In this document: piece by piece, positions 8,765 to 42,625 of the stretch | How positions within the stretch are numbered: position 1 is the first letter of the stretch | How the letters are laid out: the number at the start of each line of letters is the position of its first letter | Assembly (NCBI GenBank): GCA_902774175.1 | Contig: CACYHG010000002.1 | Span: forward strand, 27,297 to 91,296 | DNA: 64,000 bases | From: an uncultured Bacteroidota bacterium | Lineage (GTDB): Bacteria > Bacteroidota > Bacteroidia > Bacteroidales > WCHB1-69 | Direction: 5' to 3' | Notes under the pieces: generated by a model | The model's database searches: none | What the model was told of the DNA's origin: nothing | The model's input: only the letters and a program-made list of their open reading frames with translations | Made by a program: the position numbers and the translations under genes

Positions 8765-10123
8765 CTATTTGCCGATGCAGAAGCGGGAGAAAATCTCTCC
8801 AAGAATATCATTGTTTGTGACCTCCCCTGTGATTTTGCCCAGGTGGCGGATGGCGTTGCGTGCATCTATGCTCAGCAGGTCAGGTGTGCGTCCGCATTCC
8901 AGTCCGCTTCGCATCTCCTCAAGTGCCGAGCGGACGTTCAGCAACGCTTCGTAGTGGCGGAGGTTCGTCAACATCACCTCTCCGCTTCTGCCTTCAAATC
9001 CTGCCATGCGGGCAAGCTGGCGTTTGAGTTCATCCAGCCCTTCCCCACGCAAGGCTGAAATCCGGTAAGTGACCGGATTGTCCGATACCTTTCCGTAGCG
9101 CGGTGTTTCCGCCAAATCCTCCTTGTTGTGCAGGACAATGCATTTTTTCCCTTTGCGTCCATATTCTCCGAGCGCCGTTCCGGTCTCCTCCGCAGTCTCA
9201 TTCATGTCGGTCAGATGCAGCACCATTTCGGCGTTGTCAATGGCCTTGCGGCTGCGTTCGATGCCCATAGCCTCCACAACGTCACCGCTTTCCCGAAGTC
9301 CGGCGGTGTCAATGAATCTGAATGTGACGCCTTCTATTGTCATGCACTCTTCAATGGTGTCGCGTGTGGTTCCCGCTATCGGGCTGACAATGGCGCGGTC
9401 ATCTGACAGAAGCGCGTTGAGCAGGGTCGATTTTCCGGTGTTTGGCCGTCCCACAATGGCTACGGGAATCCCTTTTTTCAGGGCGTTGCCCATGCGGAAG
9501 GAGCCGATGAGACGCTCCACCTTTCCGGAAAGGGTGGAGTTGAGCTCCTTCAATTGGTTCCGGTCGGCGAACTTGACATCCTCCTCGCTGAAATCCAGTT
9601 CCAGCTCCAGCAGTGAAACCATACGGATCAGTTCATCACGCATTGTCCGCAGCTCTTGGGCGTATCCGCCTCTCATCTGGCTGAATGCCAGCTGGTGCGA
9701 TGCCCTTGAGTCGGAGGCGATAAGGTCGGCCACCGCCTCGGCCTGTGACAAGTCCATTTTTCCGTTCAGGAATGCCCGGCGGGTGAATTCCCCAGGCTCC
9801 GCCATGCGGCAGCCGTTCCGTATAAGCAGTTCTAACATCCGCTGCATGATGTATGCGGAACCGTGGCAGGAGATTTCAGCCATCTCCTCGCCTGTGTAGG
9901 AGTGCGGTGCGGAAAAGGTCCAGAGCAGCACCTCGTCCAGACATTCCCCTCCATCTGTGATTTCACCGAAGCGTACCTGACGGTCGTGCATGGCGGAGGC
10001 GGCGTTTTTGGGGCTGAATATCCTGGAGACAATCCCTTTTGTGCCTTTGCCGGATATCCTTATCACGCCCAAAGCCCCGGAACCGGCAGGTGTGGCGGGG
10101 GCGCAGATGCAGTCCTGTTCCAT
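8765..10123 (-). CDS. mnmE: tRNA modification GTPase MnmE (TrmE)
   Basis: The N-terminus MEQDCICAPATPAGSGALGVIRISG, the G-domain GRPNTGKST / DTAG / NKED, and the hallmark C-terminal CIGK all match. The start at 10123 avoids overlap with the upstream gene. Confidence 0.9.
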   Translation of the reverse strand: MEQDCICAPATPAGSGALGVIRISGKGTKGIVSRIFSPKNAASAMHDRQVRFGEITDGGECLDEVLLWTFSAPHSYTGEEMAEISCHGSAYIMQRMLELLIRNGCRMAEPGEFTRRAFLNGKMDLSQAEAVADLIASDSRASHQLAFSQMRGGYAQELRTMRDELIRMVSLLELELDFSEEDVKFADRNQLKELNSTLSGKVERLIGSFRMGNALKKGIPVAIVGRPNTGKSTLLNALLSDDRAIVSPIAGTTRDTIEECMTIEGVTFRFIDTAGLRESGDVVEAMGIERSRKAIDNAEMVLHLTDMNETAEETGTALGEYGRKGKKCIVLHNKEDLAETPRYGKVSDNPVTYRISALRGEGLDELKRQLARMAGFEGRSGEVMLTNLRHYEALLNVRSALEEMRSGLECGRTPDLLSIDARNAIRHLGKITGEVTNNDILGEIFSRFCIGK

Positions 10124-10125
10124 CT

Positions 10126-11325
10126 TCAGAGAGTGTCGATAACTGCGCACAGCCGCCGGAATATCTCATCCATGCTGCCGACACCTTCAATGTGATTGTA
10201 TTTGTCCTGACTGCGGTAATAGTCAATCACCGGCATGGTCTTGCTTTCGTACTCCTTGAAGCGTTTCAGGATAACCTCTTCGGTGTCGTCCTTGCGGCCT
10301 TCAATCTGCGCACGTTTCAGCAGCCTCTGCAGCAGTTCGTCCTGCGGCACATCCAATGCCAGCATGGTGTGTACGGCTGTCTTACGTTTGGCAAGCAGCA
10401 GGTCAAGCGCTTCGGCCTGGGCGGTGGTTCGCGGAAAACCGTCGAACAGGAATCCCTTTGCATCAGGAGTCTCGTCCATTTTCGATTCCAGCAGCTTTAT
10501 CACAAGGTCGTCAGGGGCAAGGATGCCCTGTTCGGCCAGATTCTTCACCTGCAGTCCGAGCGGTGTGCCCTTGGCAATCTGCTCGCGGATAACATCGCCG
10601 GTGGAGATGTAGGCCAGCCCGTATTTTTCCAGCAGCCGTTTGGACTGTGTGCCCTTGCCGCTGCCCGGAGGGCCGAACAGCACGATGTTCAGCGTCTTGT
10701 TCCCCGAAGGTGTGCAAATCGGGTGCTGCCGGAGGTATTCCTCCATCAGGCGGGCGAAATATTTGCCGAGGATGTCGAATTCGATGTTGATGACGCTCCC
10801 TTCGCGGATGTTGTGGAAATTTGTCACCTGGTGGGTGTAGGGGATGATGGCCACCGAGAAGTATCCCTGTTCCGAATCCACCACCGTCAGGCTTACCCCG
10901 TTGACGCAGATGGAGCCTTTTGGGACAGTCATGAAACCCTCCTTAGGCTCATATTTGAAATAGTAGCGCCAGCTGCCGTTCTCGTCCGTAACCTTGGTGC
11001 AGACGGCGGTCTGGTCCACGTGGCCCTGCACGATGTGGCCGTCAAAGCGGCCGTCCAGCCGCATGCTCCGTTCCAGATTCACCTCGTAGCCGACAGTCCA
11101 GCTGCCGAGGTTGGTCTTCTGCAGCGTCTCGTCCATTGCGGTGACCACGTATTGTCTTTTTTCGCGGTCAATGCTGACGATGGTGAGGCAGCAACCGTCG
11201 TGGGCCATGCTCTGGTCTATCTTCAGCTCGCCGGTGAAATCCGCCTCAATGGTGAAATCCACATTGCTCTTGTCGCGGCGTATGCCGACGATCTTCCCCG
11301 TTTTCTCAACAATTCCTGTAAACAT
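10126..11325 (-). CDS. Single ORF fusing riboflavin synthase (aa 1 to about 200) to adenylate kinase (aa about 212-399)
   Basis: The RibE part reads MFTGIVEKTGKI...DQSMAHDGCCLTIV...GHIVQGHVD...VNGVSLTV...FDILGKYFARL. The Adk part reads LNIVLFGPPGSGKGTQSKRLLEKYGLAYISTGDVIR...FLFDGFPRT.... There is no stop between the two. The codon where the Adk ATG is expected is ACG (10693-10695). Confidence 0.85.
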   Translation of the reverse strand: MFTGIVEKTGKIVGIRRDKSNVDFTIEADFTGELKIDQSMAHDGCCLTIVSIDREKRQYVVTAMDETLQKTNLGSWTVGYEVNLERSMRLDGRFDGHIVQGHVDQTAVCTKVTDENGSWRYYFKYEPKEGFMTVPKGSICVNGVSLTVVDSEQGYFSVAIIPYTHQVTNFHNIREGSVINIEFDILGKYFARLMEEYLRQHPICTPSGNKTLNIVLFGPPGSGKGTQSKRLLEKYGLAYISTGDVIREQIAKGTPLGLQVKNLAEQGILAPDDLVIKLLESKMDETPDAKGFLFDGFPRTTAQAEALDLLLAKRKTAVHTMLALDVPQDELLQRLLKRAQIEGRKDDTEEVILKRFKEYESKTMPVIDYYRSQDKYNHIEGVGSMDEIFRRLCAVIDTL

Positions 11326-11403
11326 ATCATTATATTATTATATTTTTCTGTTTTTATTTACGGCTGACGTACACGTCAGCCCTACGACAAATTTGCGACG
11401 GCC

Positions 11404-12228
11404 CTACGACATCCCCCTCGCATTCTTGATGCGCTGGTACGCCTCGTTGATCTCCGCAAAACGCTTTTCGGCCTCCTTGCGGGCCGTCTCCCCCAGATGC
11501 GCCACCTTGTCCGGATGGTTGTCGATGGCCAGACGGCGGTACGCCTTCTTGATGGCTTCGTCCGAATCGCTGCTTCTCACACCCAACAATGCGTAGTCCG
11601 CATCCAAACGGCTGGTGCGGCTGTATCCGCCTGAATATCCGCTTGAATATCCGCCTGAATTTCCGCTGTACCGGCTTCCGCCATATCCGGATTGTCCGCT
11701 TTGCTGTTGTGTGTAGTAATATGCGTAGCTGTTCCGGATATATTCATAATCGGTGCTCCTTATCTGGAAATATTGTGATATGCGCTGCAGCTGCTCCAGC
11801 TCATCATTGTCTATGTCACTGTCCGAATAGGCGAGCTGGAAGAGGTATCGGAGTATCTCCAGCCGTTCGGTGTAGTTTAGTTTCAGGTTCAGCCTGCCGA
11901 CATGCTCCTGCACATCTATATTACGGTCCTTCAGCTCCACAAGATATTCGATGGCTTTGTTCGCTGCTTGTGCGCCAAACCGTTGCAGGAAAAAGTCGCG
12001 GTATGAATAGAGTTCGGACTGCATTATCCTCCGGTCGCTTTTCATCACGGCGGCGAACAGGGCGGAGATGTGGTATAGAACATCGTCGTTAATGTCTGTA
12101 GTGGTCTCGTTTTTAAGGCCGAATAATATCCCCATGAAATATCCTACGATGCCACCGACGGGACCGAGAATCATCATGCCGATCATCGCGCAGAGAAATG
12201 GGTAGCAGCCGTTTATGCGGGTCTTCAT
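11404..12228 (-). CDS. DjlA-like membrane co-chaperone: N-terminal TM helix, TerB-like domain, Gly/Ser/Tyr linker and C-terminal J domain
   Basis: The C-terminus DYALLGVRSSDSDEAIKKAYRRLAIDNHPDKV contains the HPD J-domain motif. The N-terminus has the TM segment CAMIGMMILGPVGGIVGYFMGILFG. The ATG at 12226-12228 overlaps the trkH stop by 1 nt. Confidence 0.75.
   Translation of the reverse strand: MKTRINGCYPFLCAMIGMMILGPVGGIVGYFMGILFGLKNETTTDINDDVLYHISALFAAVMKSDRRIMQSELYSYRDFFLQRFGAQAANKAIEYLVELKDRNIDVQEHVGRLNLKLNYTERLEILRYLFQLAYSDSDIDNDELEQLQRISQYFQIRSTDYEYIRNSYAYYYTQQQSGQSGYGGSRYSGNSGGYSSGYSGGYSRTSRLDADYALLGVRSSDSDEAIKKAYRRLAIDNHPDKVAHLGETARKEAEKRFAEINEAYQRIKNARGMS
11624..11671 (-). repeat. 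Imperfect 12-bp coding tandem repeat (4 units) inside the DjlA-like linker
   Basis: The units are tatccgcctgaa / tatccgcttgaa / tatccgcctgaa / tttccgctgtac. They encode the SGYSGGYSSGYSGG low-complexity linker. Confidence 0.7.
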
Positions 12229-22559: not shown

Positions 22560-23939
22560 ATGAAAACGGAGGATTTATATTCCATATACCTGAAGCATCC
22601 GCAGGTGAGTACGGACACCCGGAACATTCCGGACCAGTCTATTTTTTTCTGCCTGAAGGGCGAACGTTTTGACGGCAACACCTTTGCTAAAGAGGCATTG
22701 GATAAGGGTGCTGCCTATGTTGTGACCGACAGCCGGCAGCCTTTTGACGACAGCCGTCTGATACAGGTGGAGGATGTCCTGCAGACGCTCCAGCAGCTGG
22801 CGGCATATCACCGCAGCCAGCTCCAGATTCCTGTAATAGGCATCACCGGCACAAACGGAAAGACCACCACCAAGGAGTTGGTGACGGCTGTGCTTTCCCG
22901 CAAATACAGGGTCGCCGCCACGAAGGGCAACCTTAACAACCATATCGGTGTGCCGCTCACTCTGCTTTCGATCAGGCCGGAGCATGAGATTGCCGTGGTG
23001 GAGATGGGGGCGAACCATCCGGGCGAGATTGCCGAACTGTGTGAAATGAGCGCTCCAGATTTCGGCCTTATAACCAATATTGGGAAGGCGCATCTGGAGG
23101 GTTTCGGCAGCATGGACGAGATTTTCCGCACCAAAACGGCACTCTATCGGAGCGTGCTTTCCCGCAACGGCACTCTCTTCGTATGTGCTGACGATGAGCT
23201 GCTTTTCCGCCATGCGGCGGAATTGGCGACCATACCGGAGGTGCCTTCGATGATTCCCTGGTATCTGGATCACGGTTTCGGACCCGACTGGAAGGCCTCT
23301 GCGGAACGGCTGACGCTTTTTACCTACGGTTCCGGTCAGAATGCGCAGTGTCGTGCGCAGCTGTGCGGGGAGAGTCTTCACCTCAGGTTTGAATGGGATT
23401 GCGACGGTACCGTTTATCCGGTGCGGACGCAACTGGTCGGCAGATATAATTTTCCCAATGCGATGGCCGCATGTGCGGTGGGAACCTTTTTTGCCGTTCC
23501 GCCCGATGAGTGCGTTGCGGCGTTGGAGTCATACTCTCCCGGTAACAGCCGGTCGCAGGTGATTGAAAAGGGGGCGGTGCGTGTCATTATGGATGCCTAT
23601 AACGCCAATCCGACCAGCATGGAGGCGGCGTTGCGCAATGTTGCCGCCATTCCGGCTGAACGCACCTTTCTGGCCTTGGGCGACATGTGCGAGCTGGGGA
23701 CGGAGAGTCACAAGGAGCACCAGAGGATGGTGCGTTTGATCCAATCCCTTTCCTTTACAGATGTTTTTCTGTTCGGTCCGGAGTTTGCCGAGACCGATGC
23801 ACCGCAGGAATGGAAGTTCACGGACATGGAGGTGCTGAAAAAGGCTTTGGCGGAGAGGTTGGGAAACCGTCCGGCCCAGCTGCTGATAAAAGGCTCCCGC
23901 GCCATGCGGATGGAGCAGGTGATGGAAATTTTTTCCTGA
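22560..23939 (+). CDS. murF: UDP-N-acetylmuramoyl-tripeptide--D-alanyl-D-alanine ligase
   Basis: STDTRNI, GITGTNGKTTTKE, NLNNHIGVPLTLL and DAYNANPTSM are Mur ligase/MurF motifs. Confidence 0.9.
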   Translation: MKTEDLYSIYLKHPQVSTDTRNIPDQSIFFCLKGERFDGNTFAKEALDKGAAYVVTDSRQPFDDSRLIQVEDVLQTLQQLAAYHRSQLQIPVIGITGTNGKTTTKELVTAVLSRKYRVAATKGNLNNHIGVPLTLLSIRPEHEIAVVEMGANHPGEIAELCEMSAPDFGLITNIGKAHLEGFGSMDEIFRTKTALYRSVLSRNGTLFVCADDELLFRHAAELATIPEVPSMIPWYLDHGFGPDWKASAERLTLFTYGSGQNAQCRAQLCGESLHLRFEWDCDGTVYPVRTQLVGRYNFPNAMAACAVGTFFAVPPDECVAALESYSPGNSRSQVIEKGAVRVIMDAYNANPTSMEAALRNVAAIPAERTFLALGDMCELGTESHKEHQRMVRLIQSLSFTDVFLFGPEFAETDAPQEWKFTDMEVLKKALAERLGNRPAQLLIKGSRAMRMEQVMEIFS

Positions 23940-42551: not shown

Positions 42552-42625
42552 GGTCCCTTAGCTCAGTTGGTTAGAGCAGCTGACTCATAATCAGCGGGTC
42601 CTTGGTTCGAGCCCAAGAGGGACCA
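42552..42625 (+). tRNA. tRNA with CAU anticodon, most like tRNA-Ile2 (lysidine-modified); elongator tRNA-Met not excluded
   Basis: The cloverleaf reads GGTCCCT-TA-GCTC-AGTTGGTTA-GAGC-A-GCTGA-CTCATAA-TCAGC-GGGTC-CTTGG-TTCGAGC-CCAAG-AGGGACC-A. The D-arm and anticodon-loop sequence closely resemble E. coli ileX as I remember it. No CCA is encoded. Confidence 0.85.

Follow-up and report, generated by a model that had tools for sequence, protein, structure and literature searches.

RibBA, RibD and RibF/RibCF are bifunctional enzymes of the riboflavin pathway, each of which carries a second catalytic domain. These fusions join consecutive or related flavin steps, and they are ancient and widespread. 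Riboflavin synthase (RibE/RibC, EC 2.5.1.9) is a homotrimer held by its C-terminal helix (1i8d, 1kzl), and adenylate kinase (Adk) usually acts as a monomer whose lid undergoes large movements. Fusion of neighbouring genes by loss of a stop codon is a well-known process. The subject of this report is a fusion of these two enzymes, encoded by a ribE-adk open reading frame (ORF) of 399 residues at positions 10126-11325, minus strand, of a 64,000-nucleotide stretch of DNA from an uncultured Bacteroidota bacterium (GTDB Bacteroidia; Bacteroidales; WCHB1-69). This stretch, called the window throughout, comprises positions 27,297-91,296 of the forward strand of contig CACYHG010000002.1 in assembly GCA_902774175.1. 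A lineage-specific gene fusion, with Adk produced as the C-terminal part of a bifunctional RibE-Adk chain, probably accounts for the locus. In contrast to the flavin-pathway fusions, the partner of RibE is here an unrelated kinase, and the clade is narrow.

Several other fusions involving Adk or related kinases are recognized: tandem Adk-Adk, Hpt-like(Pribosyltran)-Adk and MutY-like-Adk proteins, and the bifunctional cytidylate kinase/GTPase Der of family NF007071. Adk is C-terminal in the Hpt-like and MutY-like proteins, as it is here, and the partner differs. The examples of these two types that were checked are singletons, whereas RibE-Adk is present in dozens of assemblies. Tandem Adk-Adk proteins of about 389 residues are common in Marinilabiliales (Labilibaculum and relatives), whereas fusions of Adk to Pribosyltran(Hpt-like) or to MutY-like(HhH-GPD+NUDIX_4) partners are isolated cases; the records for these proteins are P0016-P0120, P0224, P0258 and P0250.

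The two halves of the window protein each resemble a well-described stand-alone enzyme. Riboflavin synthase is matched in its repeats, in the motifs MFTG, GCCLT and GHxxxGHVD, and, by alignment, in its C-terminal helix; the difference is that no stop follows this helix, and the chain runs on into a second enzyme. In riboflavin synthase trimers the helix forms the trimer contact, so three Adk domains would all project from one end of the trimer. Short-type bacterial Adks (the 186-residue 3cm0 and the 181-residue 1p4s/2cdn) share with the window protein the P-loop, the nucleoside monophosphate-binding region, the DGFPR and GRxDD motifs and the lack of a long LID. Unlike them, the Adk of the window is without its own start codon (ACG stands in place of ATG), and its N-terminus is tethered to a partner of 200 residues. 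Close loci are also the unfused sister gene pairs and two fused loci, L093 and L094. These have the same synteny, 76-89% nucleotide identity in ribE and adk, and the same junction length. In the sister lineages the TAA stop is intact, the spacer is AT-rich and unstructured, and adk has its ATG; L093 and L094 lack the stop and keep an ATG-ATG pair; the window lineage lacks both.

Two complete enzymes in one reading frame

The frame opens with ATG and closes with a TGA stop (10126-10128). That it is one 399-residue ORF holding RibE and Adk, as a first-pass annotation of the sequence had stated, is borne out by the ORF list, the translation and the matches to Pfam and NCBIfam. The riboflavin synthase domain (residues 1-200; 10726-11325, minus strand, as for all features of this gene) consists of two lumazine-binding repeats and a predicted C-terminal helix. 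PF00677 Lum_binding matches it in two stretches (E = 2.1e-44). The riboflavin synthase model NF006767 aligns over profile positions 1-192 of 192 to residues 1-194, scoring 215.5 bits against a cut-off of 155, and TIGR00187 scores 188.5 bits against 156.6. This half aligns end to end with the solved riboflavin synthases 7wuo, 9ryj, 4e0f, 1kzl and 1i8d; the alignment, the region of the C-terminal helix included, runs through chain residues 195-202 of the solved enzymes. MFTG, GCCLT and GHxxxGHVD are kept relative to 7wuo and 9ryj, and across 16 aligned fused proteins (A1) they vary little or not at all. An alignment that combined fused proteins with RibE-only and Adk-only representatives swelled to 510 columns, placed the RibE-only proteins poorly, and was dropped.

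The short-type adenylate kinase domain occupies residues 212-399 (10129-10692). Pfam ADK matches residues 216-374. NF001381 covers residues 212-397 with profile positions 1-186 of 188 and scores 226.2 bits against a cut-off of 187; NF011100 and NF011105 are likewise above their cut-offs. The domain is contiguous and full length against the 186 residues of 3cm0. The motifs GPPGSGKGTQ, STGDVIR, FDGFPRT and RLLKRAQIEGRKDD align with those of 3cm0 and are invariant in the 16 fused proteins. The GRxDD LID motif is present and the long-LID insertion is absent: long-type Adks of 217 residues align to residues 2-128 and then skip the insertion. As two complete enzymes share one frame, chance is ruled out. 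A stand-alone adk has its own start codon and initiation region. The Adk half has ACG at the corresponding position and a structured, GC-rich junction, and it is an Adk domain, not a stand-alone adk gene.

Between the domains lies the linker HPICTPSGNKT (residues 201-211; 10693-10725), delimited by an ungapped, equal-length alignment with L001 and L094. A joining stretch had been noted in the first-pass annotation as nine residues, ICTPSGNKT; the stretch itself stands, and its extent is refined to these 11 residues. In tryptic terms the chain here reads QHP(I/L)C(T/A)P(S/A)GNK and then, after Lys210, TLNIVLFGPPGSGK.

Recurrence of the fusion

The same fusion is found in related genomes, where it is confined to one narrow clade of uncultured rumen Bacteroidales, whose near relatives include unfused and intermediate forms. 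A search of 5.8 billion clusters yields 14 clusters of the 399-residue protein at 94-99% identity, drawn from ENA, NCBI, Logan and GEM, and in that search RibE-Adk appears only at an identity of at least 94% to the window protein. Further 399-residue records stand in the cluster membership lists, one of them present on 19 contigs. Thr211 and nearly all of the Adk half are invariant in the 16-protein alignment; the variants seen within the linker are I203L, T205A, P206H and G208E.

At the DNA level, ten alleles share the junction of the window: the window itself, L004 (UBA1195, an unclassified Bacteroidales), L081-L086, and the JGI metagenome contigs L095 and L096. In each of the ten the junction is open and carries ACG. 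Pairwise, these alleles differ by about 2-12% of their nucleotides, too much for copies of one assembly. The same ACG junction comes from SPAdes NODE contigs, k141 contigs, Logan, JGI and UBA. In a metagenome scan, a relaxed junction pattern returned two contigs, and the exact junction pattern with the window-specific synonymous variant AACAAG had no metagenome match. Across these independent sequences the fused frame is evidently real, and neither an assembly error nor a private mutation.

One allele of this set departs from the others in ribE. L081:3573-4771 carries a 1-nucleotide deletion in an AAAA run near codon 135, which splits the gene into calls of 143 and 256 residues (P0015). Present on a single contig, it could stem from an assembly error or from a true frameshift of ribE, with Adk fused to half a RibE.

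Three states of the junction

Of the 80 GTDB species representatives whose RibE is closest, only four carry adk less than about 6 kb from ribE. In all four, adk lies immediately downstream of ribE, and the fusion occurs only in UBA1195. The gene order TrkH, DjlA-like, ribE, adk, mnmE is common to L001-L003 and L087-L092. Three states of the ribE-adk junction are distinguished; they are colinear and identical in length. (i) State A is unfused (L001, L002, L003 and L087-L092). The ribE gene ends in TAA, a 12-nucleotide AT-rich spacer follows, and adk begins with ATG, with stop and start in the same frame every time. The junction codons of L001 are CAA AAT GAA ATA ACC AAA TAA TCA AAT AAA AAC ATG ACA AAC. 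(ii) State B (L093, GCA_017650125.1; L094, GCA_017961225.1) has a fused, open junction, ...YLRQHPLQAPAPKE-MM-NLVLFGPPGSGKGT..., in which both adk ATGs are kept. L094 carries a complete fused ORF of 400 residues, and contig L093, 1.8 kb long, breaks off inside adk. The L094 codons are CAA CAC CCG CTG CAG GCA CCG GCT CCG AAG GAG ATG ATG AAC. (iii) State C, that of the window, is fused and has ACG-CTG in place of ATG-ATG; its codons are CAG CAC CCG ATT TGC ACA CCT TCG GGG AAC AAG ACG CTG AAC.

The colinearity assigns each linker residue to a part of the unfused junction. Relative to L001, residues 201-205 correspond to the old RibE tail, Pro206 to the stop, Ser207-Lys210 to the 12-nucleotide spacer and Thr211 to the start. 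The position of the old stop holds TAA in L001, CCG in L094, CCT in eight of nine state C alleles (Pro206 of the window, 10708-10710) and CAT (His) in L084. The ACG of Thr211 (10693-10695), which the first-pass annotation had placed where the Adk start codon was expected, aligns column for column with the ATG of L001 adk and with the first ATG of L094. The CTG of Leu212 (10690-10692) falls at the second ATG of the L094/L093 pair. The form given for stand-alone starts in the first-pass annotation, M-LNIV, is roughly right: the nearest stand-alone Adks begin MTNIV, MINIV, MMNIV and MKNIV.

States B and C share a derived RibE tail, RQHP(L/I), together with a proline codon at the old stop, which points to a single origin of the fusion. 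Among the state C alleles, L096 (CAPAGNKT) is an intermediate towards state B (QAPAPKEMM). The most economical reading would be a single stop-loss fusion, followed in the window lineage by loss of both start codons. Independent origins of B and C were considered and rejected on account of the common derived tail, the linker length and the proline at the old stop. The pairing had been judged to have no obvious metabolic logic. This fits, as the fusion follows from the clade-specific adjacency of two in-frame genes 12 nucleotides apart.

Selection on the fused frame

Non-synonymous (dN) and synonymous (dS) divergence was compared among state C alleles. In the Adk half dS is 0.05-0.15 and dN 0-0.007, with dN/dS of about 0-0.07. 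In RibE residues 36-200 dS is 0.03-0.70 and dN 0.005-0.024; the ratio is mostly 0.03-0.13 and reaches about 0.28 in the least diverged allele pair. Counted at codon positions 1/2/3, polymorphic sites come to 5/7/60 for RibE, 3/1/6 for the linker and 5/1/27 for Adk. Conservation within the ORF is highest in the Adk half, where 4 of 188 residues vary across nine alleles. Such patterns indicate that both halves are under strong purifying selection.

The linker varies at 4 of its 11 residues among the DNA alleles and at 6 of 11 when all protein variants are included. Third codon positions account for six of its ten variable nucleotide sites, and the change between GGG AAC AAG and GGA AAT AAA comprises three synonymous differences. 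No stop or frameshift is present in the linker of any state C allele. The third-position bias implies that the linker is read in this frame, and it appears to be translated sequence under relaxed constraint.

Codons 8-35 of ribE (window 11221-11304) are hypervariable between alleles that are otherwise 95% identical, with dS above 1.6 and dN of 0.3-0.47. An alternative version of these codons is identical in several distinct species, among them L002, L003 and L004. This hypervariable segment looks like a recombination breakpoint within the 5' end of the gene.

Translation initiation at the junction

Bacteroidetes initiate translation without Shine-Dalgarno pairing, and initiation is tuned by low messenger RNA structure (about -20 to +20) and by upstream adenines, for example at -3 (PMC6847099). 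At the unfused adk starts, the 20 nucleotides upstream are 65-80% A+T, and the folding free energy of the -30..+30 region, dG, is -3.0 to -6.7 kcal/mol. The ribE start of the window has 95% A+T upstream and a dG of -2.8 kcal/mol. It lies behind an AT-rich leader (11326-11403), which by A+T content and dG is the sole initiation-type region serving the fused gene. The junctions of states B and C have 30-55% A+T upstream (65% at GTG215 in L082) and dG of -14 to -21 kcal/mol; background positions within ORFs have -14.5 +/- 3.8 kcal/mol, and the fused junctions are no more open than these. The AT-rich initiation signature of unfused adk is erased at the fused junction.

The best surviving alternative holds that a separate Adk of about 21 kDa is made by internal initiation at ACG211, CTG212, ATC214, GTG215 or ATG194, the last giving a product of 206 residues. 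The long ORF would then be partly an illusion of annotation, or both forms would be made. In-frame candidate starts are indeed present. The last ATG in frame ahead of the P-loop is Met194 (10744-10746), which falls within the RibE C-terminal helix, and the codon table confirms the earlier statement that no Met codon follows it there: codons 195-230 are without ATG. GTG Val215 (10681-10683) is a candidate near-cognate start. It and ACG211 each have A at -3 and -6, and an A-rich GGAAATAAAACG just upstream is kept in the majority allele. NCBI annotation calls an Adk of 206 residues (P0272) and one of 190 (P0291) in related metagenome-assembled genomes (MAGs). Non-AUG codons do initiate at a low level in Escherichia coli, where AUG, GUG and UUG work at 10-100% of AUG, AUA, AUC, AUU and CUG at about 0.02-3%, and the remaining codons, ACG included, at about 0.01-1% (bioRxiv 10.1101/063800).

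The weight of the junction data is nevertheless against this alternative, and a separate Adk is unlikely. The junction is GC-rich and structured like ordinary coding sequence, unlike every unfused adk start of the relatives, and both ancestral ATGs are gone with no compensating canonical start in ten alleles. The synonymous sites just upstream vary freely (the GGG AAC AAG to GGA AAT AAA change cited above), which argues against a conserved initiation signal. The ATG194 context is itself GC-rich and structured, with a dG of -14.7 and no A at -3 or -6. A start at GTG215 would drop three residues of the Adk beta-1 strand, and matches to stand-alone homologues all begin at query residue 212-213. 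The E. coli rates for ACG, CUG and AUC would yield little of an abundant essential enzyme. A structured junction and weak non-AUG codons together make independent initiation of such an enzyme unlikely. Non-canonical initiation, which the first-pass annotation had offered as one option, is thus disfavoured as the main source of Adk, and low-level internal initiation at GTG215, CTG212 and ATG194 may occur. A Met-initiated peptide, M-NIVLFGPPGSGK or M-LFGPPGSGK, would be its mark. ACG211 as a functional start was rejected: its codon class gives 0.01-1% in E. coli, the junction is structured, and synonymous sites upstream vary.

A separate observation concerns the unfused loci L087-L092. A perfect AAGGAG stands 6 nucleotides upstream of their adk ATG (L087:3989-4000). 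It resembles a Shine-Dalgarno motif, in a group whose ribosomes reportedly make no use of one. In the fused L094 allele the same AAGGAG lies directly before the ATG-ATG.

Proposed origin and product of the fusion

A lineage-specific fusion that makes Adk as the C-terminal domain of one polypeptide remains the probable explanation, and its course can be outlined from the aligned junctions. (i) In the ancestor, ribE and adk would have been adjacent and in the same frame, with a TAA stop and a 12-nucleotide AT-rich spacer between them. (ii) Mutation of the stop to a sense codon, now that of Pro206, would have joined the two reading frames. (iii) The adk starts would then have become superfluous, and ATG-ATG would have given way to ACG-CTG. 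(iv) The spacer, once an open and AT-rich initiation region, would have become GC-rich like ordinary coding sequence. (v) Ribosomes would now start at the ribE ATG (11325) and read through the 11-residue flexible linker. (vi) The product would be a single chain of about 44 kDa, in which a complete riboflavin synthase forms the N-terminal part and a complete short-type adenylate kinase the C-terminal part. This fused polypeptide would be the main or only source of Adk activity. Because riboflavin synthase trimerises through its C-terminal helix, the protein is expected to form a trimer with three Adk domains on 11-residue tethers. Of the options raised in the first-pass annotation, a functional fusion protein appears best supported, by purifying selection on both halves, an in-frame linker and the lost initiation signature. 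In the solved AK1 and AK2 structures, N-terminal extensions precede Adk beta-1, the match starting at chain residues 7-23, and Adk is also known behind the other upstream partners named above; N-terminal additions to Adk are tolerated in nature.

Several points weigh against this account. The weak in-frame starts ATG194, CTG212, ATC214 and GTG215 remain in the sequence. The order of states from A through B to C rests on shared derived characters and, with the locus mosaic between lineages, would be the most economical order, not a proven phylogeny. No second adk was found by tblastn with Adk in the 64-kb window, which is all that this search covered. An AlphaFold2 model built on the 16-sequence alignment is too poor for use (mean pLDDT, the predicted local distance difference test, 42.3; pTM, the predicted template modelling score, 0.25). 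At this low confidence it has a helix at residues 186-200. The tblastn search also gave one short match to Adk residues 168-180 at 23091-23129 (+), with 11 of 13 residues identical (E = 0.003), which is probably due to chance.

It is a doubtful suggestion that the fusion is adaptive, with three tethered Adk domains altering dosage, stability or local nucleotide handling, and with the allele spread by homologous recombination. Spread between rumen Bacteroidales species is suggested because the state C allele is 92-99% identical while the flanking genes are 55-84% identical.

That the Adk half is redundant, with a second, stand-alone adk elsewhere supplying the activity and the fused copy decaying, is highly unlikely. 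The window-wide scope of the search for a second adk leaves room for such a gene. The Adk half is, however, the most conserved segment of the ORF (dN 0-0.007 against dS 0.05-0.15), its catalytic motifs are all intact, unfused relatives carry adk at exactly this position, and the 64-kb window has none besides the fused copy.

Cleavage of the fused protein in the linker into separate RibE and Adk has a variable, Pro/Gly/Ser-rich and probably exposed linker in its favour. It would be most improbable even so: the linker has no recognisable protease or self-cleavage motif, and variation at four (DNA alleles) to six (all proteins) of its positions is unexpected for a specific site.

A sequencing or assembly artefact or private recent mutation, raised as an option in the first-pass annotation and prompted by the metagenome-assembly sources, the 1-nucleotide deletion in the A4 run of L081 and the mosaic look of the locus contigs, is scarcely credible and in effect refuted by an identical ACG junction from different assemblers and projects, in ten DNA alleles that differ by 2-12% at the nucleotide level and, among proteins, in more than 14 clusters and dozens of records.

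Novelty, significance and public annotation

No identifiable RibE-Adk protein is present among the best 150 matches from 1.84 billion representatives. These 150 are multi-Adk repeats (at the top), Adk with other partners, RibE-only and Adk-only proteins, and the query's own family is not among the representatives in them. A literature search for a riboflavin synthase-adenylate kinase fusion found no paper describing one. Stop loss has here combined two ordinary enzymes into a new domain architecture, in a narrow rumen clade.

The mechanism is not surprising, and understanding of either enzyme family is unchanged by it. The case is a neat one, with intermediates preserved and an essential enzyme left without its own start codon. 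It affords a rare view of a gene fusion in progress, every stage of which is preserved in living relatives. The partners, an essential monomeric enzyme with large domain motions and an obligate trimer, make it a natural test of how far tethering is tolerated.

Public labels for the protein are inconsistent (records P0014, P0272, P0274, P0285, P0291, P0292). It appears as a 399-residue 'adenylate kinase', as a 399-residue 'riboflavin synthase' (JGI) and as a 206-residue 'adenylate kinase' beginning at Met194. The fused allele that keeps its ATGs is annotated by NCBI as a 190-residue Adk only, with no gene call over the ribE part. As a result of such labels, metabolic reconstructions of these rumen MAGs can seem to lack ribE or adk.

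Mosaic structure of the locus and neighbouring genes

Contigs that share 94-100% identity over a block of about 2.5 kb, comprising a 390-residue ORF and ribE-adk, have only 55-84% identity in the TrkH, DjlA-like and mnmE genes that flank it. The comparisons were L081:2187-4678 against L082, L081 against L094, and L094 against L087; the equivalent in the window is about 10126-11400. Between L081 and L094, TrkH and DjlA are 100% identical and mnmE is 52-66% identical. Either homologous recombination between species is frequent at this locus, or metagenome contigs have been joined into chimeras by way of the shared block.

Downstream of the fused gene in the window lies mnmE, encoding the tRNA modification GTPase (8765-10123, minus strand; NF003661, 403.8 bits against a cut-off of 380). 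Its ATG (10121-10123) is 2 nucleotides past the ribE-adk stop, so the operon is still tightly packed. A sigma-70 promoter and terminator scan of the minus strand over 10000-11500 gave no match, with models that are uninformative for Bacteroidales promoters. An Rfam scan of the 64-kb window found no flavin mononucleotide (FMN) riboswitch or other RNA element near ribE. The sole Rfam match in the window is a tRNA at 42552-42625 (+).

Upstream, the window has 78 nucleotides between the DjlA-like gene and ribE (11326-11403). The 390-residue ORF that stands between these genes elsewhere (L082:1792-2964) is absent there, and L001 and L003 also appear to be without it. It is present in the other fused relatives with an examined upstream flank and in the unfused L087-L092. 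This ORF has no Pfam or NCBIfam match; it carries a signal peptide and an LLTAC lipobox-like motif.

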